This document shows, piece by piece, positions 37,844 through 64,000 of a stretch of DNA of 64,000 nt. The first letter of the stretch is position 1; each line of letters opens with the position of its first letter. Both the position numbers and the translations under genes were made by a program. The notes beneath the pieces are model-generated. The model worked only from the letters and a program-made list of their open reading frames with translations, was not told the origin of the DNA and did not search any database. Origin of the DNA: a virus (Duplodnaviria; Heunggongvirae; Uroviricota; Caudoviricetes; Herelleviridae); the IMG/VR virus record IMGVR_UViG_3300020128_000040; one strand, 5' to 3'.

Positions 37844-38617
37844 TCACTCGCCGGGCGAGCGCTGGCTGTGCTCATTGCTGGTCTGCTCAGCGGCCCTGTC
37901 GGCTGCCTTGATGTGCCCGCGCAGCGCGAGCACCGCAGCCTCGACCCGCTCGAGGTGGAGGGCCGGGACCTCGTGGCCCCGGGACACAAGCGCCTCGCGC
38001 AGCACGGGCAGCGCGGGGGCGTATTTGGACGCGAGCTTGCGGACCATCGAGTCCGGCGCGCGGCCGTACTGGTGGGACAGCGAGCCCGCGTTGTCGACCA
38101 TGTCGGAGGCCTTGACCAGCAGCGGCCAGTCGTCCTCGTTCGAGGCGATCGCCTCGATCTTGGCCATGTAGTCCTCGGGCGAGGGCCGGGCCGCCTCGTT
38201 GGTCACCGCCTGGACGGTGGCGGCGACCCGGTCGCCGTAGGCCCGGGCCAGCCACGCGGCCGGCGCCTCCTTCACCGCGAGCTGGGAGGCGTAGCGGCTG
38301 GCGCAGTCCTCGACGGTGTCGTGCAGCAGCGCCGCTGTTGTGAGCCCGGCGTCGCGCAGGCCCCAGCGCCGCACCCGCAGCGCCACGCGCATCGGGTGCT
38401 CGATGTAGGGGGTCCGCTCCAGCGGCCCCCGGGCCTGGCGTGTTTGGCCCTCGTGGAGGAGGGCCGCGACCTGGGCGGCGGAGACGACCATCTCACGCTC
38501 GCCGGGGCCGTCACTGGTTATTTCGGCGAGCAGCTCGAACGACAGCAGCGCCGCGTCCATCCGCTTCAGGGGGATGCGCGGGTAGCGCGCTGTGCTCGTT
38601 GTTTGAGTGCTCGTCAT
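37844..38617 (-). CDS. RelA/SpoT-type HD hydrolase (small alarmone hydrolase, Mesh1-like)
   Basis: H.GQ.R...PYIEHPMRVA, AALLHDTVED and VKASDMVDN motifs; no synthetase domain. Confidence 0.88.
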   Translation of the reverse strand: MTSTQTTSTARYPRIPLKRMDAALLSFELLAEITSDGPGEREMVVSAAQVAALLHEGQTRQARGPLERTPYIEHPMRVALRVRRWGLRDAGLTTAALLHDTVEDCASRYASQLAVKEAPAAWLARAYGDRVAATVQAVTNEAARPSPEDYMAKIEAIASNEDDWPLLVKASDMVDNAGSLSHQYGRAPDSMVRKLASKYAPALPVLREALVSRGHEVPALHLERVEAAVLALRGHIKAADRAAEQTSNEHSQRSPGE

Positions 38618-40034: not shown

Positions 40035-41012
40035 TCAGTACCCGCGGTCGCGGGCGGTGTGCAGCGCCTCGAAGAGCGCCCAGTGGTCGCAGGCGTAGAG
40101 CCCGGAGTTGTGGATCGGGTTCAGCTCCACGACCAGCGCCCGGCCCGTCGCCAGGTCCAGCGCGCAGTCGATGGTCACGGTGCCGCCGTGCTCGGCGGCG
40201 ACCCTCCGGGCGAGGTCGCCCAGGGCGACCTGCACCGCGTGCGGGGTCTCGGTCATCTCCGAGGGGCCCTCGGACCCGTGGTGGCCGCGCAGCATCCTGC
40301 CTTGCAGCAGGCCCGGCTCGTGATCCAAGGGGGTGAGCTCCTCGACGCAGCCGGCGGCTGTGACGATGTGCCCGTCCACGGCGAAGAAGCGGGTCTCCCA
40401 CGTCATGTCCACCCAGTCCTGGGCGAGCAGGGAGGCGGGCAGCCCCTCGAGGCGCACGTACTCCCAGTTCAGCGCCTCGGCGACGGCTGTGTCATTGGCG
40501 GCCCGGTCAGGGGCGGTGGGCAGCGCCCAGATGCCGCCCTTGCGGGTGGCTGACTTCAGCACGACGGTGCCGATTCCGGCCGCATGGCGCTCGGCCATCC
40601 AGTCGGCGACGTCGCTCGCGTTGTCGTCTGTGCCGACGCCTGCCAGCCGCATCTGGCGGCCGCCGTGCTCCTGGACCAGGGGGTGGGCCAGGAACTGGTC
40701 GCGGGCGTGGCCGCCCTCCTCGTCCCGGGAGACGGGGCCGAGCCGCGGCGAGGCGCCGTCGTGGCGCTGGGCCACGACCATCGCCCCCTCGGTGGCCCTC
40801 CAGGACGCAGCCATGCGGCAGGCGTCCTCCCAGAAGTCCTCGTAGTCGGCTGTCGGGTCGGCCTGCTCGATGAGGGGCTCACGGCCCGATGCGGCCAGCG
40901 CCTCGCGGACCTCGGCCAGGATCTCGCCGGCCACGAGTTCGTGGCCGGGCTTGACGCCCGGGAAGTCGCGCAGCGACCCCGTGAACACTGTCTTGATCTG
41001 ATCCTCGGCCAT
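40035..41012 (-). CDS. ATP-grasp domain protein (DUF4343/R2K-like)
   Basis: VVLKS, WETRFFAVDG, TIDCA and VVELNPIHNSGLY motifs; GAAGGAGG RBS. Confidence 0.75.
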   Translation of the reverse strand: MAEDQIKTVFTGSLRDFPGVKPGHELVAGEILAEVREALAASGREPLIEQADPTADYEDFWEDACRMAASWRATEGAMVVAQRHDGASPRLGPVSRDEEGGHARDQFLAHPLVQEHGGRQMRLAGVGTDDNASDVADWMAERHAAGIGTVVLKSATRKGGIWALPTAPDRAANDTAVAEALNWEYVRLEGLPASLLAQDWVDMTWETRFFAVDGHIVTAAGCVEELTPLDHEPGLLQGRMLRGHHGSEGPSEMTETPHAVQVALGDLARRVAAEHGGTVTIDCALDLATGRALVVELNPIHNSGLYACDHWALFEALHTARDRGY

Positions 41013-41279
41013 GGCGGGCCTCCTTCTCGTGCTGGTGTCGTGCTTCGTTCGATGCTGTGCCTCAGCCGGTGGCGCCCCAGAGCTTGCCGGGGGCGAGGCT
41101 GTCGGCGGGCAGCCGCAGGACGAGCCTGTCGCGGCAGGACGGGTCGCCGGGCTCCAGCGGCTTGCTGGGGTGCCCTCCGCCGGCCGGCGCTGCCGGGACT
41201 TCTTGCTCGCGTTGGTGAACATAGTGTCGGCCACCCCTCTCATAGGTGCTCGGTCGGCGGACAGGCACAGTCGCGCGGC

Positions 41280-54807: not shown

Positions 54808-55314
54808 TCAGGCGAACGGGGTCTCGCTGGCGTCGCCCTGCTGCGCCTTGAGCGCTGCGATCTGGGCCTCGAGGTCGGCCACGGACGGGCCGGAGGTCGC
54901 AGCCGCTGCGGGCTGGGCGGCAGGCTGCGCGGCAGCCTTCTTCGCCTTGCGCGCGTCGGTCACGGCCTTGGTCTCGAGGTAGCGGGGGTAGCCGTCGATC
55001 TCGACGGTCGGGCCGTCGGGGTACACGGTCTTGCCGTCCTTGGTGAACGGCTTGTGGCTCAGGCGGTAGTTGACCGCGATGAGGTCTCCCTCACCCACGT
55101 TCGCCCACGAGCCGATGCCGTTGGCGCGCGCCGGGATGAAGGCGCGGACCGGGATGAAGTCGGTGTCGGGCTCGTTCTTGCCGTTGCGGACGAAGTCCTC
55201 GTCCACGCCGAGCGAGAAGAGCAGCGCGACTGAGCCGTCGCTGTTCGGGAACTGCTTGATGCCACCCTTGCCGACGCGGCCGATGAGGTGTCCGTTGTTC
55301 GCGGGATTTGCCAT
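54808..55314 (-). CDS. ssb: single-stranded DNA-binding protein
   Basis: N.G.LIGR, FSLGVD..F, TDFIPVRAF and GDLIAV (OB fold); tail ending ETPFA. Confidence 0.85.
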   Translation of the reverse strand: MANPANNGHLIGRVGKGGIKQFPNSDGSVALLFSLGVDEDFVRNGKNEPDTDFIPVRAFIPARANGIGSWANVGEGDLIAVNYRLSHKPFTKDGKTVYPDGPTVEIDGYPRYLETKAVTDARKAKKAAAQPAAQPAAAATSGPSVADLEAQIAALKAQQGDASETPFA

Positions 55315-55600
55315 GGTAGTCCTGCTTCCTGCGGCCTGCGGCCGCTGATTTGGTTCTCTGCATGCAGTGCGGAGGATCTTGTGCGGTAGGTCTTTCTCCA
55401 AGACCCTTCCACGGGTCTGCCCGAAGACGGCCCCTCGGCCGTCTGTCAGAGCACGCCCTCCCTCAGGAGGCGTGCGACCCTGTCGAAGACAGCCCCGACA
55501 GCGACGCCCAGTCGCTGTCCGGCGCAGGGCCCGCCAGGGGCCCGCCGCCCTGCCCACCCGCAACAGCACCAGCAACAGCTCGCCGCTGCCACTGCTGCTG

Positions 55601-55930
55601 CTATTGCTCGCCGCCGCCCTTCGGCGGCCTGGGTCTGGGCCTGGTCAGGTCAACGCCCGTGGTGCGCGCCAACATCGCCAGCGCGTTGCGCTGCGCCCGG
55701 CGGTCGCTGGGCGTGGCGGCCATGATCAGCGGCCGGGACGAGGTGCCGACGCTGCCCTGAGGCAGGTCTTGCGCCCGGGGGTCGTCGTCCGGCAGCCACA
55801 GGGCCCAGTGGCCCGACTTGCGCAGCTCGGCCTCCAGGCCGTGCGCCCGGGCCCGGGAGACGAGCTCCTTGGCGCTGCCCGGGTACGACCTGGCGTGGCC
55901 CTGCTGCCTGCTGTCCTTGCGCCTGCTCAC
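55601..55930 (-). CDS. HicA-like putative mRNA interferase
   Basis: AKELV..AR..G.E...KSGHW...ATPSDRRAQRNA pattern. Confidence 0.6.
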   Translation of the reverse strand: MSRRKDSRQQGHARSYPGSAKELVSRARAHGLEAELRKSGHWALWLPDDDPRAQDLPQGSVGTSSRPLIMAATPSDRRAQRNALAMLARTTGVDLTRPRPRPPKGGGEQ

Positions 55931-55941
55931 GGGCCCGGGCC

Positions 55942-56316
55942 TCAGCTGCCCTCTCGGGGCAGCACCGTGACCGTGGCGTGCTCACAAGCATCAGCCTCCA
56001 GGGCCTCCTTGAGGTCCATCGCGGCCATGTCGCCGTCGAGGCGCAGGACGCACTTGGTCTCGATGTGGCCGCGGCGCAGGCCCGTGGTGAGCGAGCGGGG
56101 GCGGTGCCCCAGGTGCTCCAGGGCGGCGTAGACGCCCGTGTACCACTGCTGGGCCATGTCGTCGGCCTGGCGCTCGGTGATGCCGTCGGTCTCCACTGGG
56201 TGGCCCACGGTGACCTCGTAGCGCTGCTTGCGGCGGCCGCCCCCGACGCCCAGCAGGCGCTGGACCATCGAGATGGACGCCGGGCTGTCCGGACGTTGGT
56301 TGTCTGGCTGTGTCAT
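55942..56316 (-). CDS. hypothetical protein
   Basis: 124 aa, ATGA-coupled to the Panacea-like gene. Confidence 0.65.
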   Translation of the reverse strand: MTQPDNQRPDSPASISMVQRLLGVGGGRRKQRYEVTVGHPVETDGITERQADDMAQQWYTGVYAALEHLGHRPRSLTTGLRRGHIETKCVLRLDGDMAAMDLKEALEADACEHATVTVLPREGS

Positions 56317-56786
56317 GCTCTGTTCGATCCCCTCCTGCGGGCGCGCGAGCGCGCCTTGACGACGGCAGCGGCGGTCGCCGCTGCTAGTGCGGCCACGACG
56401 GCGGCCGCTGCTTTCTTGAACACCCTCGCCGGCGGCATGGGCGCTTGTTGGTCGCTGCTGTCGGGCGCGAGGCCCTCGGCCTCCATGCGCGCCCCCACCC
56501 TCGCCTGGACCTCGGGGTCGGTGAGCCGGTCGGCGAGCATTTGGGCGTCGACGAGGAACTCGCCCTTCAGCGCCTCATAGAGCACCGGGACGACGGGGCC
56601 GTTGGCCCACGCCTCGATCCGCTCAGGGAAGAGCGGCACGCCGTCCCACGCCAGGTGCCAGGCCTGGCTGTAGTAGACCAGGCGCTGCAGCTTCATGTGG
56701 GTCATCGGGCCGTGCTTGCCCAGGATGTACGTGGCGACGTCGAGGACGCCGGCGCTGCTGGTCCTCCTGGTTCCTTGGGCGCTCAT
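56313..56786 (-). CDS. Panacea/SocA (DUF4065)-like antitoxin, N-terminal half only
   Basis: DVATYIL...MKLQRLVYYSQAWHLA...PLF...IEAWANGPV; no TH.E.PW C-terminal motif seen. Confidence 0.8.
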   Translation of the reverse strand: MSAQGTRRTSSAGVLDVATYILGKHGPMTHMKLQRLVYYSQAWHLAWDGVPLFPERIEAWANGPVVPVLYEALKGEFLVDAQMLADRLTDPEVQARVGARMEAEGLAPDSSDQQAPMPPARVFKKAAAAVVAALAAATAAAVVKARSRARRRGSNRA

Positions 56787-57091
56787 ACGAGCACCCTGAC
56801 CAGCACAGCGCGGGAGTCGAACGGCCCCACGCGCAGGTCGGAGACCTCCTCGACCAGCCCAGAGGCGGCCAGGGAGGCGGCGACGCCCTCGCCCTCGGAC
56901 CAGTCCTTGATGTGGACATGGCCGGCCGGGGCGGCGACGCCGTAGGCGGCGAGGTTGACGGACAGGGTCTCGGGCCCCTCGTCGGTCATGAGGACCAGCG
57001 CGCGCTGGTCGTCGTCGTGCTCCACGGAGCCGGCCAGGGCGATGCCGGGGAACTGCACGGTGATGTCTTGTCTGATTTGCTGGAAGGCCAT
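56783..57091 (-). CDS. hypothetical protein
   Basis: LSVNL...IKDWSEGEGV..SL; 102 aa. Confidence 0.65.
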   Translation of the reverse strand: MAFQQIRQDITVQFPGIALAGSVEHDDDQRALVLMTDEGPETLSVNLAAYGVAAPAGHVHIKDWSEGEGVAASLAASGLVEEVSDLRVGPFDSRAVLVRVLV

Positions 57092-57131
57092 GGCTCGGCT
57101 CTCTTTCTGCTTGATGGGCGGTGCTGGTGGG

Positions 57132-57635
57132 TCAGGGTTGTATCACAGCCAGGAGGGCCGGGCCTTCGAGCCGCTGGGCGAGCCTGGTGATGCGGTCCGC
57201 CTCCTGCGGGGGCAGCACCGGGTCGAAACGGCCGGTGGCGCGCAGGGACGCGAGGTTGAGCGCCAGGCGCGCGGCGTGCCTGCGCCTCTTGAGGTCGCCA
57301 TGGGCGAACTTGCGGATCGTGCGCTCGTACTTGTCGAAGACGTCAGCCCCGGCCACGCGCATCGACTCGATCATCGGGCGGTAGGGCAGGCCCTCGACCG
57401 TCCACTCCTTGAACGGGGAGAACAAGGCCTCCACGCTCTGGTGCGAGCCGGAGGCGGCGTGGGCCAGGAACTGGTCCAGGCCCCTGGTGGAGCAGTCGGT
57501 GCCGTCGGGCAGGAAGCCGTGGCGGGCGCCTGGGCGGGATGAGGAGGTGACGACGAACACGTCGGTGTCGGAGCCCGCGTGGGCGAGCCCGTACAGGCGT
57601 GAGCCGTGGATCGTTCTGAACAGCTCCTGCGGCAT
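57132..57635 (-). CDS. RlaP-like (Nuc-transf) nucleotidyltransferase
   Basis: IHGSRLYGLAHAGSDTDVFVV (GS...DxD), EALFSP, HAARL; GAGGAGG RBS. Confidence 0.78.
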   Translation of the reverse strand: MPQELFRTIHGSRLYGLAHAGSDTDVFVVTSSSRPGARHGFLPDGTDCSTRGLDQFLAHAASGSHQSVEALFSPFKEWTVEGLPYRPMIESMRVAGADVFDKYERTIRKFAHGDLKRRRHAARLALNLASLRATGRFDPVLPPQEADRITRLAQRLEGPALLAVIQP

Positions 57636-57669
57636 CGTGGCCACCTCCTCCTCCATCATTCGTGGCGCA

Positions 57670-58188
57670 TCAGACCTGGTACGGCCGGCCGAAGGCCTCG
57701 ACCTGGTGGCGCACGGCGACCACGCCCTGGCCCACGGCCAGCTGCCAGCGGTCGCCCGGGTCCTCGCCCTGGGCGTCGATGACGCCGGTGAGCTCGTGGT
57801 CGCAGGTGAACGACGCCAGCCGCGGGTCCTCGGACATGTGCGCGTCGATGTACGCGCGGGCCGAGGGGGCCAGCAGCTTCTCGACCAGGTACTTCATCCA
57901 GGCGTCGGCGTCGTAGAACTTCTCCGCGCCGTTCCAGGCGATGGAGGCCCCGTCGTCGGACGGCTCCCAGCACAGCCAGAGGCCGGGCTGGTCGGGGTGG
58001 GGCTGGTTGGAGTCGATCACGTCGGGCGCGTCGTAGTGCATGAAGCCCTGGTTCGGCTCCACGTGCAGCGGGCCCTTCGTGCGGTTCATCCTGCGCGAGT
58101 CGGCCAGGTCCTTGAGGAACGAGACCTCGTCGGCGTTCAGCGGCGGGGTGACGGCGATCTCGCCGTCGAACTCTGTGGTGTAGCCCAT
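57670..58188 (-). CDS. conserved phage/plasmid-like hypothetical protein
   Basis: MGYTTEFDG, QPGLWLCW, WNGAEKFY...W.KYL; strong RBS. Confidence 0.75.
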   Translation of the reverse strand: MGYTTEFDGEIAVTPPLNADEVSFLKDLADSRRMNRTKGPLHVEPNQGFMHYDAPDVIDSNQPHPDQPGLWLCWEPSDDGASIAWNGAEKFYDADAWMKYLVEKLLAPSARAYIDAHMSEDPRLASFTCDHELTGVIDAQGEDPGDRWQLAVGQGVVAVRHQVEAFGRPYQV

Positions 58189-58239
58189 GGTCGGGATCTC
58201 TTTCTTTTGTGGGACGGTGGCGGGTCGGGGTTGGGCAGC

Positions 58240-58776
58240 TCAACCGAAGACGACGACGCCCTCGTCGGCGGCCAGGGTGAGGCCCGTGAGCCAGCCCTCG
58301 TAGGCCGCGAGGTCGTACTCGTCCAGGCGCTCGCGCGCCAGGTCGTGGTGCTGGCGGAAGTCCGCCAGCAGGTCGTCAGCGGCCTCATGGCCGATCGCGC
58401 CCTCGTTGTCGGCGAAGTTGATCAGCTCGAAGAACGGCTGCTCGGAGTAGGACACGGGGTCGTGCCACACCTGGGAGGGCGTGAGCCCGACCAGGCCAGC
58501 CAGCGCCTCGCGGAAGGCGCCGTAGCCACTGTAGGAGCGGCTCATGACCAGGGCCGTCTCGGTGGCGTCCGTGGTGCGGTAGACAGCGCGGGCGATGAAG
58601 CCGTCGTCGTCGGGCACGTCGTGGCCGGGGATGCCCCGCGTGGAGGCCTCGAAGCCGCCGTAGGCCATGGTGGTGACCAGCTCGGCGCCGCCCTGCTGGA
58701 CGTCGTCCCAGGCCTGCTCAGGGGTCATGCCGGGGACGTGCTCCAGCTTGCTGTACGCGATGATCGAGACTCCCAT
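58240..58776 (-). CDS. hypothetical protein
   Basis: MGVSI.AY...SYSGYGAFRE.LA...PFFELINFADNEG. Confidence 0.72.
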   Translation of the reverse strand: MGVSIIAYSKLEHVPGMTPEQAWDDVQQGGAELVTTMAYGGFEASTRGIPGHDVPDDDGFIARAVYRTTDATETALVMSRSYSGYGAFREALAGLVGLTPSQVWHDPVSYSEQPFFELINFADNEGAIGHEAADDLLADFRQHHDLARERLDEYDLAAYEGWLTGLTLAADEGVVVFG

Positions 58777-58843
58777 GACGGGGCCCCCTCTCCAGTAGGT
58801 GTGATGAGTGAGTGCTTCTACCAGACCACCCGGGCCCGCCCCC

Positions 58844-61147
58844 TCAGGGGCGGGACTCCAGGGCGTCGAAGACGCCGGCCAGGTCGAGGCGGGGCGTCCC
58901 GTCGAGACCTGCCACGTCGAACGCGCCAGCCCTGACGGCCTCCAGGAGGCCGGCCTGGGCCAGCGAGCGCTCCAGCTCCAGGTTGGCGCGCCCGAGAGTG
59001 TCGGAGGCGCCGCGCCAGTAGCGCTCCAGCGGCGTGCGCACGGCCTTGCGGGCCGAGTAGCCGGCCGCCTTGACCTTGGAGCGGTAGTCCGCCGCGTCGA
59101 CGAGCACGGCGCCCTCATGCAGGTCGGCCTCGGCCGCCGCGATGAGCGCGTCGATCCCCTCGGGGCCCTCGGCCACGCCCATGACGCTGTCGTGGGCGAG
59201 CTCCAGGGAGAACCTCCTGGCGATGTTGCGCGCCATGCGGTCGTCCGTGCGGAAGGCCTCCTGGTTGCGGATCGCGTCCAGGAGCACCAGCCGGTCGGGG
59301 CCGGGCTCGTTGACTGGGTGCGGGTCGTCGGAGCGCAGCGCCTCGAACACGGCCGTGACGCCGGTGCGCTCCAGCATCTCTCGCAGCTGCACGCAGCCCT
59401 GGGAGGTGAGCTCGGTCAGGAGCATCCGCTTGGCCGCCTCGGCGTAGGGCGTGGCGCCCGACTTCGAGAACACGGCGAGATGCCCGTGGACCGAGGCCAC
59501 GAGCACGAGGTAGCCGTTGTACTTCTTCACGGCCCGCACCGGGTACGCGGTGACGGAGGGGTCCTCCCACTGGGCCAGCGACCGGCCGGGCTCCTCGCCG
59601 ATGTGGAAGAACTTCTCGTACCCGCGCGCCAGGACCTCGCCGGTGGACGAGTCCATGAACAGGCCCCGGGCGTGCACGGAGACGTCGTCCCACGCGCCCT
59701 CCTGGAAGGCCTGCCGGGTGAAGTTCGCAGCCACGACCCCGTCCCAGCCCTCGACGGGCCGGACGGTGACGTGCGCGCTGGAGCGCATGCGCTCCAGCAG
59801 CGGCAGGGCGGGCTCCTTGCGGCGCAGCCAGGGCATCTGCGAGAAGTGCGCAGCAGAGGCGGCGTCCACGCCGTCGGCGTACTCGTGCAGCTCCGGGGCG
59901 TCAGAGCCCCTGGTGATGACGGCGACGCGGACGTGGCCGCCGGTGGAGGCGCCGGCCTCCAGGCACACGACCGGCCCGTCGGGCGTCTCGCGCACGGCGG
60001 GGACGGGGCCCTCATTGGCGCGGCCGTTGCGGTGGCCGTGCAGCTGCCTGCCGGCCAGGTCGAACGACCCGACGTCGTACGACGTCTTGCCGCGGTAGGC
60101 GTGCGCCCGGTCGCCGGTGCCGTAGACGAGCTCGGCGTCGGCGACATGGAGCATCGACGACAGGGCCCGGCGGCGGACCGCCTCGGACACGCCGCCGTGG
60201 GTGACCAGCCACGGGCGCGACGGCGAGCCGTCGGCGCGCGGGGCGCCCGGGATCAGCACCAGCGGCACCGTGGCGTCCACGAAGGCGGCCTGCTGGCCGG
60301 CCATGACCCCGTGGGCCAGCAAGGCGTCACGGGTCTCGCGGGTGTCTGGGAACGGCGCGCGCGCCGTGTTGTTGGCGACGGCCCGCAGGTTCAGCTCATG
60401 GTTGCCGGTGACGACGGTCGCCCTGCCCTCGGCCAGCAGGCCGTGCACCAGGTCCCAGACCCCCACGGGGTCGGGGCCGCGGTCGAACAGGTCCCCGGCG
60501 AACACCCAGCGGGTGCCCGGGGCGTCCAGCTCGGCGACCGCCTGGCGCAGGGGCGCGGAGCACGAGTGCACGTCGCCCACCACGACCACGCGGTCGGCGT
60601 TGACGGTCTGCGGCAGCACGAGGTCGTGCGTGAGCAGGAGCGCGTTCTGCACTTCCTGGGCGGTCCCGGCGATGACGGGCGCGCCCTGAGGCACAGCCTT
60701 GTCGCATCCGGCCTCCCACATCTCGCGCAGGCGGTCCTCGTCGAGCGCGTCCGTGCCCCGGTGGGCGTTGCGGCGCAGCAGCTCCTCGAACGGGACGTCG
60801 CCCTGCACGTCGACGACGAAGGGGCGGTAGCCGTGGCGGCGGGCCCGGCGCACCAGGTCGGACTGGTCGCGCAGGGGCAGGCTGGTGGCGTCCCACACGA
60901 CGGTGTGGCCGTCGGCCATGCGGGCCTCCAGCGCCGCGAAGGCGGCGTCGACGGCGGCGCGGTCGACCTCGGAGCGCACCCGCAGGGTGGCGGAGGGGGC
61001 GCCGTCGGCGTCGAAGCAGGACACCGGGGCCGCGAACAGCTCCCGGAACCGGTCGAAGCCGAGGGCGAGGGGCTCGAGGCCCAGCTCGTGGACGAGGCTG
61101 GTCTTGCCGGAGCCGGGGGCCCCGCGGAGTATCAGCATGACGCGCAT
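58844..61147 (-). CDS. polynucleotide kinase-metallophosphoesterase-RNA ligase fusion (Pnkp-like, Rnl1-type ligase)
   Basis: GAPGSGKT, FDRFR, VWDAT (kinase); GDVH, GDLFDRGPD, GNHE, HGG, HGH (calcineurin-like phosphoesterase); ARGYEKFF, KYNG, FE, EGAV, KVK (covalent nucleotidyltransferase motifs). Confidence 0.9.
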   Translation of the reverse strand: MRVMLILRGAPGSGKTSLVHELGLEPLALGFDRFRELFAAPVSCFDADGAPSATLRVRSEVDRAAVDAAFAALEARMADGHTVVWDATSLPLRDQSDLVRRARRHGYRPFVVDVQGDVPFEELLRRNAHRGTDALDEDRLREMWEAGCDKAVPQGAPVIAGTAQEVQNALLLTHDLVLPQTVNADRVVVVGDVHSCSAPLRQAVAELDAPGTRWVFAGDLFDRGPDPVGVWDLVHGLLAEGRATVVTGNHELNLRAVANNTARAPFPDTRETRDALLAHGVMAGQQAAFVDATVPLVLIPGAPRADGSPSRPWLVTHGGVSEAVRRRALSSMLHVADAELVYGTGDRAHAYRGKTSYDVGSFDLAGRQLHGHRNGRANEGPVPAVRETPDGPVVCLEAGASTGGHVRVAVITRGSDAPELHEYADGVDAASAAHFSQMPWLRRKEPALPLLERMRSSAHVTVRPVEGWDGVVAANFTRQAFQEGAWDDVSVHARGLFMDSSTGEVLARGYEKFFHIGEEPGRSLAQWEDPSVTAYPVRAVKKYNGYLVLVASVHGHLAVFSKSGATPYAEAAKRMLLTELTSQGCVQLREMLERTGVTAVFEALRSDDPHPVNEPGPDRLVLLDAIRNQEAFRTDDRMARNIARRFSLELAHDSVMGVAEGPEGIDALIAAAEADLHEGAVLVDAADYRSKVKAAGYSARKAVRTPLERYWRGASDTLGRANLELERSLAQAGLLEAVRAGAFDVAGLDGTPRLDLAGVFDALESRP

Positions 61148-61203
61148 GGGTCAGCCTCTCTTCCTGGTCGGTGGATCGGGTGATGGCAATGATGGCAATG
61201 GTG

Positions 61204-61277
61204 CGCCCCAGGCAGGACTCGAACCTGCGACAACGCGGCGTAGGAGGCCGCTGCTCTGTCCACTGAGCTACTGGAGC
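61204..61277 (-). tRNA. tRNA-Arg(CCT)
   Basis: Folded by hand: acceptor GCTCCAG/CTGGGGC, D arm GCTC/GAGC, anticodon stem GCGGC/GCCGC with loop CT-CCT-AC, T arm GCAGG-TTCGAGT-CCTGC. Confidence 0.93.
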
Positions 61278-61296
61278 TGGCCGGGGCGGGGGCGGC

Positions 61297-61476
61297 TCAG
61301 CCCTGCTCGCGCAGGGCCCGGCGGGCCTCCCTGGCGCCCTGCTGCCGACGGGTGCGGCCGTCGGACTTCTTGTAGTACTTGCCAGTGCGGCAGTACGCGC
61401 ACCCGCCGTTGGCGGACTCGGGGCAGTTCTTGCCGGAGCGCGGGCGGCCCTTCTGGTCGCGGTCACTGCGGGACAT
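61297..61476 (-). CDS. 59-aa basic Cys-containing protein
   Basis: Manual translation MSRSDRDQKGRPRSGKNCPESANGGCAYCRTGKYYKKSDGRTRRQQGAREARRALREQG; GAGGAGG RBS. Confidence 0.6.
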   Translation of the reverse strand: MSRSDRDQKGRPRSGKNCPESANGGCAYCRTGKYYKKSDGRTRRQQGAREARRALREQG

Positions 61477-62104
61477 CAGGGGCCTCCTCTGTGTCGGCGC
61501 TGTCGGCGGGGTCGATGGCGACCCGGATGGTCATGGCGTCCTCGTAGGCGTCGCGGTCTGCGGTACTCAGGACCTCCACCCCCTGTACCGCCATGGGGCC
61601 CAGCAGCGGTCCGTCAGGGCCCAGCACGATCAGTTGGCGGGTGTGGATGGAAGAGAGCACCAGGTCGGAGGCCGGTAGTACCCAGTCGATGGCACGGTCG
61701 GACGAGGCCACCTGCTCGGGTACGAGGTACACGTCCAGGCCCCCGCGGTGGCTGGACTCCCAGTAGAAGCCGAGCATGCCCGCCCGCAGGCGGGACATGG
61801 CCAGCTCCGCGGTGGAGAAGCCGCCGGAGACCAGCTCCAGCCTGCGCACGCGGCGGTGGCGCGGGCTCAGCGGGTCTTCCTCGTACTCGGGGGCGAGGCG
61901 GACGAAGCCGTTCATCAGGGCCTGGCGGGCCCACTCGACCAGCTGGTCGAAGGTGCCGGTGAAGCCCTCGTCGATCCAGGCCTCGCGCCGGCCCTGCTCC
62001 GTCTCGGAGAACGGGGTGACGTCCTCGGCGGCGTCGAGCAGCCCCTCGAGGATGTCCTCGGGGAGGCCGCCGATGATGTCTTCGTACGGGTCCTGCTGGG
62101 CCAT
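61463..62104 (-). CDS. hypothetical protein
   Basis: GAGGAGG RBS before MAQQDPY; LELVSGGFS...FYWESSHRGG. Confidence 0.7.
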   Translation of the reverse strand: MAQQDPYEDIIGGLPEDILEGLLDAAEDVTPFSETEQGRREAWIDEGFTGTFDQLVEWARQALMNGFVRLAPEYEEDPLSPRHRRVRRLELVSGGFSTAELAMSRLRAGMLGFYWESSHRGGLDVYLVPEQVASSDRAIDWVLPASDLVLSSIHTRQLIVLGPDGPLLGPMAVQGVEVLSTADRDAYEDAMTIRVAIDPADSADTEEAPDVPQ

Positions 62105-62123
62105 GGCGGCCTCCTCTTCTTGG

Positions 62124-63440
62124 TCAGATGGTGTGGATCTTGCGTCCGGTGACGGTCCCGAGTGTGGCGTCGCCGCGCACGAAGCCGTCCACCCAGATGA
62201 CACGGTGCTGCTGGGTCGAGGCGTACCACTGGTTGCGCCAGTGGCCCCGCACCCAGTGCGCCCGCAGCCTGCGGCCGGTGACGGCCTCGAGCTGGTACCG
62301 GCCATGCTCGCTGTTCTTCAGGGAGACCACGCGTATGCGGCGGTCCTTCGGGGCCGAGGCGGCCTTGCGCCGCTGCTTCTTAGTGGCGGGCAGCTCGTCG
62401 GCCCCATTCCCGGGCTCCCCGACGACGGTCTGTGGCGACCGCAGCAGAGCTTGCACTGAGCGGAGCAGCCCTATGTTGGCGTGCATGATCCCGTGGTCGC
62501 CCTCGGAGACGGCCAGGCCGTACGGAAAGAAGGCGTGGTTCAGCACCCGGAACACTGGGTGGCTGTCGGTGTGCAGGTTCCGGAACACAGGCTCGCCGGC
62601 GTCACGCGCGGCCTTGAAGGCGGCGTCACTGATAGCAGCCTCGTGATTGGCGTTGATGAGGGTGTTGACTGTCACGGCCGGGCCCCGGGATGATATTCCG
62701 TGCTGCCATGTGAGCCCGTAGACGGGCACATCGACACCGCCTATGGTGTTCCCCAGGGCGGGCTCGGTCACCGGCGTCCTGAACATCACGATGCCGTTCG
62801 GCGCGACCATCTCGTCCTGGTGCAGCGGTGTCCGCGGGTGCTCCAGTGCCGCAGCTACAACCATGTCGGTGAAGTCCTCGCCCCCGAGCACGACGAACGT
62901 GTCATCGTCGGCCCAGAGCTCGGCTTCCAGCGACGCCCATATCCGTGGGTATTCGGCGAAGGGCGTGTCCATCGACAGCTTGTCCCCGTGCTCGACGAGC
63001 TTCATGGCCCATTCCAGTGGGGCATGCGGCGAGAGCGCCCACCGTGTGTGCGCAGCGATGGCCGACGCCATGCTCGAAGGCGTGAGTGTTGGGGGCAGGG
63101 CGTGTTTCCTCATGAGGGGCACATGAGGCATGGAGACGAGGAGCACGCCGTTCCCGGCCGGGACGAACACCATGCCCGACTTCTCCACGACCTCACGGGG
63201 GCCGGCGTAGAGAGGCGTTGGCACGCCAGGGGCCTCCGACGCCAGCTCGTACAGGTAGGACTCGCGGGCGTCGAGGGTGAGGACGTCCTCGTTGGGGGCC
63301 GGTTTCGGCCACGCCCTCTCGGCAGGGACACCGCCTGGGCCGGTGAGCTTGACGGCGTCCACGAGGTAGCCGGGCTGCTCAGGAGGGTTGTCGGGGTGCT
63401 TCCGCCTCAGTATGGCGTAACGGTCAGCGCTGGTCTTCAT
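62124..63440 (-). CDS. hypothetical protein with C-terminal HWVRGHWR motif
   Basis: 438 aa; AAGGAGG RBS; RAHWVRGHWRNQWY...IWVDGFVRG. Confidence 0.75.
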   Translation of the reverse strand: MKTSADRYAILRRKHPDNPPEQPGYLVDAVKLTGPGGVPAERAWPKPAPNEDVLTLDARESYLYELASEAPGVPTPLYAGPREVVEKSGMVFVPAGNGVLLVSMPHVPLMRKHALPPTLTPSSMASAIAAHTRWALSPHAPLEWAMKLVEHGDKLSMDTPFAEYPRIWASLEAELWADDDTFVVLGGEDFTDMVVAAALEHPRTPLHQDEMVAPNGIVMFRTPVTEPALGNTIGGVDVPVYGLTWQHGISSRGPAVTVNTLINANHEAAISDAAFKAARDAGEPVFRNLHTDSHPVFRVLNHAFFPYGLAVSEGDHGIMHANIGLLRSVQALLRSPQTVVGEPGNGADELPATKKQRRKAASAPKDRRIRVVSLKNSEHGRYQLEAVTGRRLRAHWVRGHWRNQWYASTQQHRVIWVDGFVRGDATLGTVTGRKIHTI

Positions 63441-63444
63441 GGGG

Positions 63445-64000
63445 TCATCCCTCCTTGGCGTGCGAGCCGTCGGCGTAGTCGATCGCGAAGCCGGCGGCGG
63501 TGTTGGACACCTCGACCCGCAGGTCGAGGGAGCCGTCGCACGAGGCCACGTCCACCAGCACGGAGCGGGGGACGAGCTCGTCGCCGGTGTAGACCGGCGC
63601 GGCGGCGTAGTAGAGCGGGCACTCGGCGTTGGCCGGGTCGTCCAGGTACTGGCGGGCCAGCAGCTCGGTGAAGGCCATGCCGCCGGAGTACTGGCCGCCC
63701 GTCTGGGCCGAGCCCACGTTCTGGGTGCGGGTGCCGGTGACCAGGTTCTCCAGGACGGCGCCGCCGCCCAGGGAGTCGGCCAGCAGGTGCGAGCGGTTCC
63801 ACAGCCAGCCGGAGTAGGCCTTGGAGCCCTCCACGCCCTCCAGCGCGGGGATCTTCACCTGCGGGTTGGAGCCCGGCCAGCCGGCCGGGTCGACGTTGAT
63901 GTCCTGGCGGCCGCGGTCCTGGGCCTCCTGGCGCAGCTGCGGGGTCAGCGAGCCGTAGGCGCATACGGCCCTGCCGAGGTCGTCGAGAGGGCAGTAGGAG
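63445..64000 (-). CDS. DNA/RNA non-specific endonuclease (streptodornase-like), 5' end outside the window
   Basis: YCPLDDLGR, PAGW, WNRSHLLADSLGG, ENLVTGTRTQN, GGM..E. Confidence 0.88.
   Translation of the reverse strand, partial: SYCPLDDLGRAVCAYGSLTPQLRQEAQDRGRQDINVDPAGWPGSNPQVKIPALEGVEGSKAYSGWLWNRSHLLADSLGGGAVLENLVTGTRTQNVGSAQTGGQYSGGMAFTELLARQYLDDPANAECPLYYAAAPVYTGDELVPRSVLVDVASCDGSLDLRVEVSNTAAGFAIDYADGSHAKEG

Follow-up and report, generated by a model that had tools for sequence, protein, structure and literature searches.

A probable self-sufficient enzyme for RNA repair, borne as cargo by a large conjugative plasmid of an actinobacterium

A DNA stretch of 64,000 nucleotides (IMG/VR record IMGVR_UViG_3300020128_000040; hereafter the window) was analyzed around a minus-strand gene encoding a 767-amino acid (aa) protein in which kinase, phosphatase and RNA ligase modules are predicted to be fused. 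The product of this gene is probably a self-sufficient enzyme of the "heal-and-seal" kind for RNA repair, and the gene itself accessory cargo of a large conjugative plasmid of an actinobacterium (high-GC Gram-positive). The evidence consists of the anatomy of the protein, its intact catalytic residues, its fold relationships to solved enzymes and the statistics of its gene neighborhoods. The original prediction, made from the letters of the window, had proposed a one-polypeptide repair enzyme on a plasmid-like element, lying between a tRNA-Arg(CCT) gene and a gene for a RlaP-like nucleotidyltransferase (NTase) that might activate the ligase. The anatomical part of that proposal was borne out, and the activation of the ligase by the NTase was not.

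Domain anatomy of the fusion protein

The gene and its modules, as delimited by the open reading frame (ORF), Pfam and PHROG matches and an AlphaFold2 (AF2) model, are as follows:

58844–61147, minus strand: 767-aa trifunctional protein (kinase, phosphatase and ligase; predicted)
60623–61147, minus strand: kinase module, residues 1–175, with P-loop GAPGSGKT containing K15, and D32 and R35
59828–60622, minus strand: phosphatase module, residues 176–440, a binuclear metallophosphoesterase with GDVHS, GDLFDRG, GNHE and HGH motifs
58847–59815, minus strand: ligase module, residues 445–767, with a PF09511 match and profile and fold matches to Trl1 and T4 Rnl1

The third-position G+C of the gene is 0.97. 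Pfam domains were found in the order AAA_33 (residues 4–143, E 1.8e-12), Metallophos (residues 186–262) and RNA_lig_T4_1 (PF09511; residues 493–692, E 4e-21). The AF2 model was built on an alignment of homologs (predicted local distance difference test 93.3, predicted TM-score 0.85) and compared with solved structures using VIA-align. Conservation was read from alignment A1 and from alignment A2, which holds 61 homologs of the fusion and in which most catalytic residues are either the same throughout or conserved to at least 90%.

The kinase module aligned with Clostridium thermocellum Pnk (4gp7; Z 18.4, root-mean-square deviation (rmsd) 2.1, 155 residues aligned), and its profile matched T4 Pnk (1ly1, E 2e-11). 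G9, G14, K15, D32 and R35 do not vary in A1 and are conserved to at least 90% in A2. The P-loop lysine and the aspartate lie 17 residues apart, the same spacing as that of K21 and D38 in the C. thermocellum enzyme (PMC1920235, PMC3902929). The phosphatase module (model residues 173–439) aligned with the phosphatase domain of C. thermocellum Pnkp (CthPnkp; 4j6o; Z 23.0, 232 residues aligned; profile E 1e-18). Its motif residues (D192 and H194; D219, D222 and R223; N249 and H250; H317; H370 and H372) are invariant in the family except for H194, which alternates with Q.

In the ligase module, the motifs ARGYEKFF (residues 507–514) and KYNG (with K542) were found as first described. The module further contains R494, K512-F513, motif I (K542-x-N544-G545), K562, E602, H610, motif IV (E678-G679), motif V (K691/K693) and K701/R704, followed by a helical C-terminal domain at about residues 704–767; K542, K562, E602, E678-G679 and K691/K693 are invariant in A2. 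Over its whole length (model residues 445–767) the module aligned with the ligase domain of Trl1 (6n0t, chain residues 39–396; Z 25.8, rmsd 3.0, 307 residues aligned), including the C-terminal helical domain. The alignment with T4 Rnl1 (9do4/5tt6/2c5u, chain residues 0–252; Z 24.0, rmsd 2.5, 238 residues aligned) covered model residues 446–703. Sequence profiles gave E 8e-22 for Trl1 and E 3e-9 for T4 Rnl1.

Since the structure comparison splits the model into three parts and the sequence profiles agree, the fusion is, as judged from sequence and model, a mosaic of the healing half of bacterial Pnkp and the sealing domain of the Rnl1/Trl1 lineage. With the Pfam domains in place and every catalytic motif intact, the gene probably supplies RNA end-healing and end-sealing in one polypeptide, as had been predicted.

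The protein was compared with three known repair systems. Bacterial Pnkp from C. thermocellum (4gp7, 4j6o) has the same order of kinase, metallophosphoesterase and ligase and provides the closest solved folds for the first two modules. Unlike that of Pnkp, the ligase module in the window is not of the Rnl4/PNKP_ligase type and matches PF09511 instead. The bacterial Pnkp model TIGR04075 scored 54.4 bits against a cut-off of 750, over model positions 12–266 of 851, which span the kinase and phosphatase only. No Hen1 or other methyltransferase match was found in any ORF from 55601 to 63858, in agreement with the earlier statement that no Hen1 is visible. Assignment of the fusion as the Pnkp of a Pnkp/Hen1 system was rejected on these three grounds (the TIGR04075 score, the non-Rnl4 ligase and the missing Hen1). 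Dependence on Hen1 comes with the Rnl4 type of ligase module (PMC6379707, refs 34 and 35), and because the ligase in the window belongs to the Rnl1/Trl1 lineage and not to the Pnkp (Rnl4) type, Hen1 should not be needed.

The second system, T4 Pnkp with Rnl1, counters the PrrC anticodon nuclease and shares the logic of healing followed by sealing; its adenylyltransferase domain and kinase are homologous to those of the window protein. T4 divides the work between two proteins, whereas the window encodes one, and the T4 phosphatase is an acylphosphatase of the DxDxT type, unlike the metallophosphoesterase found here (PMC3592404). In the whole-model alignment, in which the C-terminal domain was not searched separately, the match to T4 Rnl1 ends at model residue 703 (chain residue 252 of 375), leaving the C-terminal tRNA-specificity domain of T4 Rnl1 unmatched.

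The ligase domain of Trl1 (Rnl6; 6n0t, 6n0v, 6n67, 8rbj, 9qw7) is the best match in both sequence and fold, with ARGLF, RGY(D/E)KFF, KxNG and a histidine aligned to Trl1 H227 held in common. In Trl1, the domain order is the opposite and healing is performed by a GTP-dependent kinase and a 2H cyclic phosphodiesterase; Trl1 also needs a 2′-phosphate end and then Tpt1, which does not travel with the fusion family. The C-terminal domain is what defines a ligase clade, and that of Trl1 has been described as unique (PMC6379707). In one global fold alignment, the match to Trl1 is about 70 residues longer than that to T4 Rnl1, with the C-terminal ~65 residues aligned to the Trl1 C-terminal domain. The earlier label of an Rnl1-type ligase thus holds at the level of Pfam (PF09511) and calls for refinement at the C-terminal domain, which aligns with Trl1 and not with T4 Rnl1.

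The enzymatic steps and the biological role are assigned by homology. The damage to be repaired would typically be caused by tRNA anticodon nucleases of defense or toxin systems. The N-terminal P-loop kinase would phosphorylate the 5′-OH, the central Pnkp-type metallophosphoesterase would open and then remove the cyclic phosphate, and the C-terminal ligase, adenylylated at K542, would transfer AMP to the 5′-phosphate and seal the break. RNA repair is a recognized phage counter-measure to tRNA-cutting defenses. Protection from ribotoxins by the fusion is plausible.

Distribution of the fusion family and its linkage to neighboring genes

The fusion architecture is already catalogued in phages and plasmids, and the copy in the window is no new system. 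The protein matched phrog_8238 ("RNA ligase") over residues 1–712 (profile positions 1–685 of 737; E 1.1e-91, 309 bits). By tblastn, 198 phage records contained a match, 104 of them covering at least 80% of the query; the carriers include Staphylococcus Sep1-like and Twort-like phages and phages of Lactobacillus, Brochothrix, Bacillus and Pseudomonas. Matches were also found in 13 plasmid records, 3 near full length, including a 264-kb Tsukamurella plasmid whose gene is annotated "RNA ligase". A protein search with the window sequence returned 70 clusters, with Acidipropionibacterium, Leucobacter, Citricoccus, Mobiluncus and Actinomyces among the named sources, as well as split forms, in which the kinase-phosphatase and the ligase each occur by themselves. 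When the search was started from a distant member, it returned 655 clusters, and nearly all of them have the three Pfam domains of the fusion; it recovered bacterial and phage fusions only, and no fungal Trl1 sequences. The closest protein relatives (P0001–P0005) are 57–93% identical to the window protein, and the nearest relative in a metagenome scan is 51% identical.

In domain order (kinase, calcineurin-like phosphatase and PF09511) and length, the window protein equals the PHROG 8238 proteins annotated at NCBI as "RNA ligase" in Staphylococcus, Lactobacillus and Brochothrix phages and on the Tsukamurella tyrosinosolvens plasmid. From these phage and plasmid relatives it is distant, at 25–32% identity over 91–99% of its length. 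Unlike them, it is encoded on an actinobacterial conjugative plasmid, in an operon with a tRNA and a short RlaP-like gene.

The genes that share this cluster with the fusion are:

61297–61476, minus strand: 59-aa ORF from the ORF list, very basic, with three cysteines (C-x8-C-x2-C), at the upstream edge of the cluster as first drawn
61203–61277, minus strand: tRNA-Arg(CCT), reading AGG (ARAGORN; Rfam RF00005, 60.1 bits against a gathering score of 29)
58240–58776, minus strand: orfA, 178 aa, with its ATG at 58776 and GGAGAGGGGG just upstream
57670–58188, minus strand: orfB, 172 aa, matching phrog_38666 (function unknown; E 2e-9)
57132–57659, minus strand: 175-aa Pol-beta-type NTase, short and RlaP-related, third gene downstream of the fusion as predicted (phrog_388, "nucleotidyltransferase", E 8.5e-10)

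The NTase is one of a family of proteins of about 170 aa that comprises at least 400 clusters. Its motifs are G19-S20, D31-x-D33, D55, GSHQSVEALFS and KRRRH; in an alignment of 54 sequences (A3), G19, S20, D31 and D33 are invariant and D55 is at least 90% conserved. Several homologs match PF10127, the RlaP family, at positions ~19–179 of 249 and pass its cut-off, with 24.7 bits for P0072 (77–78% identical), 32.8 for P0107, 26.8 for P0133 and 30.4 for the copy at the Pseudoclavibacter soli locus described below. The AF2 model (predicted local distance difference test 93.9) has an NTase fold. Over the whole protein, the one solved structure that it resembled was Hailong HalB, a modest match (Z 9.3, with 156 residues aligned at 14% identity). 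The comparison of the model with the PDB did not return the crystal structure of RlaP, and a sequence search of the PDB with the A3 profile gave no match. With RlaP (PF10127; Pseudomonas fluorescens and P. aeruginosa RlaP, T4 NrdC.11) the NTase shares a Pol-beta core, three conserved acidic residues, a helical domain and an RNA ligase gene nearby, but its family measures about 170 aa against about 250 for RlaP and is common as a stand-alone actinophage gene. On its sequence, the window NTase is a short, divergent RlaP relative and not a clean family member.

Pseudomonas RlaP adds 1–2 nucleotides to RNA 3′-OH ends, prefers damaged RNA and is needed to restore aminoacylation of nucleotide-deprived tRNA (bioRxiv 10.64898/2025.12.29.696909). 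That role is one of gap filling and not of ligase activation. As an optional helper, the NTase would probably restore 1–2 lost 3′ nucleotides before sealing, or mend tRNA 3′ ends alone.

For the survey of linkage, 241 loci from genomes, viral contigs and metagenomes were collected, and six-frame ORFs were searched with two hidden Markov models, one of the short family and one, built by iteration, of canonical RlaP (seeds checked against Pfam). Deduplication left 80 full-length loci with a kinase-to-ligase match. An RlaP-type ORF was present within 8 kb of the fusion in 20 of these 80, always on the same strand and often directly downstream; one of the 20 (L001, P. soli) has the short NTase and 19 have canonical RlaP. 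At L001, the fusion (50% identical) is followed by a 490-aa gene unrelated to those in the window, the short NTase and an R2K ATP-grasp, in that order. When neighboring window genes were compared with 160 loci by tblastn, only the NTase matched, and only at L001. Leucobacter sp. HY1910 has a fusion and an NTase homolog that are each listed on a 67,884-base contig. PF10127 was not found in 4 of 5 actinobacterial genomes that carry the fusion. The idea of an NTase-activated ligase was not supported, on several counts: the ligase is not of the Rnl4 type, RlaP adds 3′ nucleotides, 60 of the 80 loci have no RlaP gene nearby and 4 of the 5 genomes have no PF10127 gene.

Short NTase genes also occur elsewhere. 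In an actinobacterial prophage (G268; L255, 9994–10527), the gene lies between the small and large terminase genes with no RNA ligase nearby; in Microbacterium phage Lifes it lies beside DNA polymerase I; and in Streptomyces phage Jay2Jay (L258, 4992–5513) it lies inside a tRNA gene array, annotated as (tRNA) nucleotidyltransferase and again with no RNA ligase nearby. Because the NTase occurs alone, most fusion loci have no RlaP gene nearby and PF10127 is missing from most of the actinobacterial genomes checked, the pairing of fusion and NTase recurs but is not obligatory, and the NTase evidently can do without the fusion ligase. Fusion, short NTase and ATP-grasp may form a recurring cargo set.

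Between fusion and NTase, orfA has a good ribosome-binding site; it had no Pfam, NCBIfam, PHROG or PADLOC match, and its neighbors in the protein atlas are unnamed families of phages and bacteria. The atlas neighbors of orfB are unnamed actinobacterial and phage families. Both families occur mostly in phages and actinobacteria, and a counterpart of either gene was absent from L001.

The tRNA-Arg(CCT) gene lies inside the operon, 20 nt after the stop of the 59-aa ORF; the ATG of the fusion gene follows 55 nt further on, in line with the original prediction. In a scan of 60 related loci, which leave out the contigs of the closest relatives P0001–P0005, none had a tRNA directly upstream of the fusion, and the actinobacterial loci had no tRNA within 8 kb; across the loci scanned, the tRNA is not a conserved part of the repair module. 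No repeat of the tRNA 3′ end, as would mark an integration scar, was found within the window. Among all called genes of the window, AGG accounts for 110 of 1068 Arg codons (10.3%) and AGA for 1.5%; an AGG share of this size may be high for so G+C-rich a genome. The tRNA is most likely co-transcribed cargo. An element-borne AGG decoder is the most economical reading, with a spare copy of a nuclease-targeted tRNA as the alternative.

Several findings weigh against a self-sufficient repair enzyme with an optional NTase helper. The window NTase itself scored 21.9 bits for PF10127, just below the cut-off of 23, and matched over residues 13–38 only. Two unrelated genes part ligase from NTase, with a different 490-aa gene in their place at L001, and the short NTase is also found with no ligase in reach (the G268 prophage and phage Lifes). 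The AGG argument lacks a host codon-usage baseline, and no ribotoxin or cognate threat was identified. We know of no biochemical study of any member of the fusion family, and literature searches found none.

Some of these findings favor an alternative in which the cluster is no functional unit, the fusion works alone, and the NTase, orfA, orfB and tRNA are independent phage-derived cargo in the same operon. That would explain why three quarters of the fusion loci (60/80) and 4 of 5 fusion-carrying actinobacterial genomes have no RlaP-type gene, why the short NTase is found alone between terminase genes and beside a polymerase gene, why the spacer genes are not conserved and why the tRNA is adjacent at 0 of 60 related loci. 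It sits poorly with the RlaP-type genes, which are always on the strand of the fusion and often directly adjacent, with the gene order preserved at 50% identity in P. soli, and with the listing of both proteins on the Leucobacter contig. We regard this alternative as possible but unlikely.

The repair route and the 2′-phosphate question

The ligands of a sulfate taken to mimic the 2′-phosphate in Trl1 (N150, H227, R334 and R337) have been described as absent from other ligase families. In the fusion, N544 and H610 align to Trl1 N150 and H227 (HMMER). Positions 701 (K/R) and 704 (R) are invariantly basic; counted from motif V, their offsets are +8 and +11 and those of the Trl1 arginines +9 and +12, in a register taken from spacing and not from superposition. 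A second residue bears on the same question. In CthPnkp, the change H189D turns the enzyme into a phosphodiesterase that makes 2′-phosphate ends fit for yeast Trl1 (PMC1920235). The position of His189 corresponds to residue 194 of the fusion, where the column contains 42 H and 19 Q in A2 (n = 61) and 71 H and 21 Q in the copies from the loci (n = 95). The first phosphatase metal motif accordingly reads GDxHS/G or GDxQS/G, at loci that include L003, L005–L008, L016, L017, L024–L026 and L041.

Tpt1/KptA (PF01885) was found in 7 of 38 fusion-carrying genomes or records and in 1 of 11 complete phage genomes, never adjacent to the fusion, and gave no match among the window ORFs scanned. Because it is rare in fusion carriers and never beside the fusion, the phage-type route, with 2′-OH ends, was retained for the repair enzyme. 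An obligatory Trl1-like pathway was rejected as the principal reading, since Tpt1/KptA does not travel with the fusion.

Two forms of a Trl1-like reading were weighed. The broader one takes the prokaryotic family as a true Rnl6 ligase, with the Trl1 C-terminal domain and a 2′-phosphate pocket, in which at least the Q variants make 2′-phosphate and seal 3′-OH/2′-phosphate ends; we consider this quite unlikely. According to the narrower one, the ligase follows the fungal Trl1 route, needing or preferring a 3′-OH/2′-phosphate end and leaving a junction 2′-phosphate, and the phosphatase acts mainly as a cyclic phosphodiesterase. The alignment of the C-terminal domain with the "unique" domain of Trl1, conserved counterparts in the family for all four sulfate ligands, and the many homologs with Q in place of the histidine matching CthPnkp H189 all point that way. 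The window protein retains the histidine (H194), however, the counterparts K701/R704 rest on spacing without residue-level superposition, and the scarcity of Tpt1/KptA described above tells against a product that would carry a 2′-phosphate. The narrower form is improbable.

The gene run, the element and significance

About 70% of the window is G+C. One apparent operon, whose genes have very high G+C at third positions, extends along the minus strand from 63.9 to about 55.6 kb, in the order 438-aa gene, 213-aa gene, 59-aa ORF, tRNA-Arg(CCT), 767-aa fusion, 178-aa gene (orfA), 172-aa gene (orfB), 175-aa NTase, 102-aa gene and SocA/Panacea gene. No promoter or terminator consensus was found by scans of the minus strand inside the cluster. 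The 59-aa ORF had no Pfam family match; its start overlaps the end of the upstream gene through ATGA, by which it is translationally coupled to that gene. Further features of the run and of the window are:

63445–63999, minus strand: Endonuclea_NS_2 (DNA/RNA non-specific endonuclease domain; E 9e-8), opening this gene run, in an ORF that may continue past the window end
56313–56786, minus strand: SocA/Panacea antitoxin-like gene (Pfam E 1.5e-10)
54808–55575, minus strand: 255-aa ORF with a weak match to a single-stranded DNA-binding protein (SSB) domain (E 0.003, below the cut-off)
40035–41243, minus strand: R2K ATP-grasp gene, 16 kb from the cluster
37844–38617: HD_4 "alarmone-hydrolase-like" HD protein (26.9 bits against a cut-off of 27.2)

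The SocA/Panacea gene overlaps the small genes on either side (56783–57091 and 55942–56316) by 4 nt each, and the segment from 55942 to 57091 on the minus strand, directly downstream of the NTase, is likely a toxin-antitoxin module. PADLOC gave no defense-system match for the repair-cluster genes; the only match of the scan was a marginal HicA-like one (ORF 55601–55930, E 0.006). Known NTase toxins add nucleotides to RNA 3′ ends, in a manner resembling RlaP chemistry. A reading of the NTase as a toxin unrelated to repair, paired with the SocA/Panacea protein two genes on and blocking tRNAs by 3′ nucleotide addition like MenT-type toxins, could draw on this resemblance and on the antitoxin-like gene with overlapping neighbors in the same operon, but it is very improbable, given that a 102-aa gene separates the two, that none of L001, G268 and the phage records inspected pairs the NTase with a SocA homolog, that PADLOC did not match the NTase cluster, and that the NTase family is RlaP and not AbiEii/MenT.

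Elsewhere, the window encodes UvrD-, SNF2- and D5-type helicases, RecJ, MgsA, an actin-like protein, a sortase and an antigen I/II-type surface adhesin. Three further genes had been listed as a wider set of translation-defense countermeasures. The ATP-grasp is present and of the R2K type; that of P. soli (L001, 12452–13735, plus strand) is 38% identical to it (E 1e-51). For the alarmone hydrolase, an HD_4 protein exists, with a match too weak to pass its cut-off. Pth2 was not found among the window ORFs scanned, in a scan that was not exhaustive.

Two large plasmids of actinobacteria, a 639-kb Streptomyces plasmid and Gordonia pGKT2, encode primase-helicases to which that of the window is 54% identical. 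This agrees with the plasmid-like element first proposed and with a large conjugative plasmid of an actinobacterium. Megablast with 20 kb of the window as query found no match in phages or plasmids. The related plasmids were not among the fusion-gene matches in the plasmid tblastn, and the repair cluster is therefore taken as accessory cargo. In addition, a sample of 401 genomes from the same order as the nearest genome relative yielded the fusion in 3, and its presence is therefore sporadic.

Interest in the fusion rests on its plasmid setting, the tRNA within the operon and the Trl1-like features of the ligase. An intact one-protein kit on a conjugative plasmid suggests that plasmids, on entering new hosts, meet and answer the same threat of tRNA-cutting defenses as phages do. 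A compact enzyme that joins Pnkp healing to a Trl1-like ligase would be convenient for studying how the choice between 2′-OH and 2′-phosphate repair evolved. If the family were a true Rnl6 family, it would be a natural source of 2′-phosphate RNA junctions in bacteria and phages, and thereby the missing substrate of bacterial Tpt1/KptA, as well as the likely origin of the eukaryotic tRNA ligase domain. The fusion enzyme may also show where the ligase domain of fungal and plant tRNA ligases arose.

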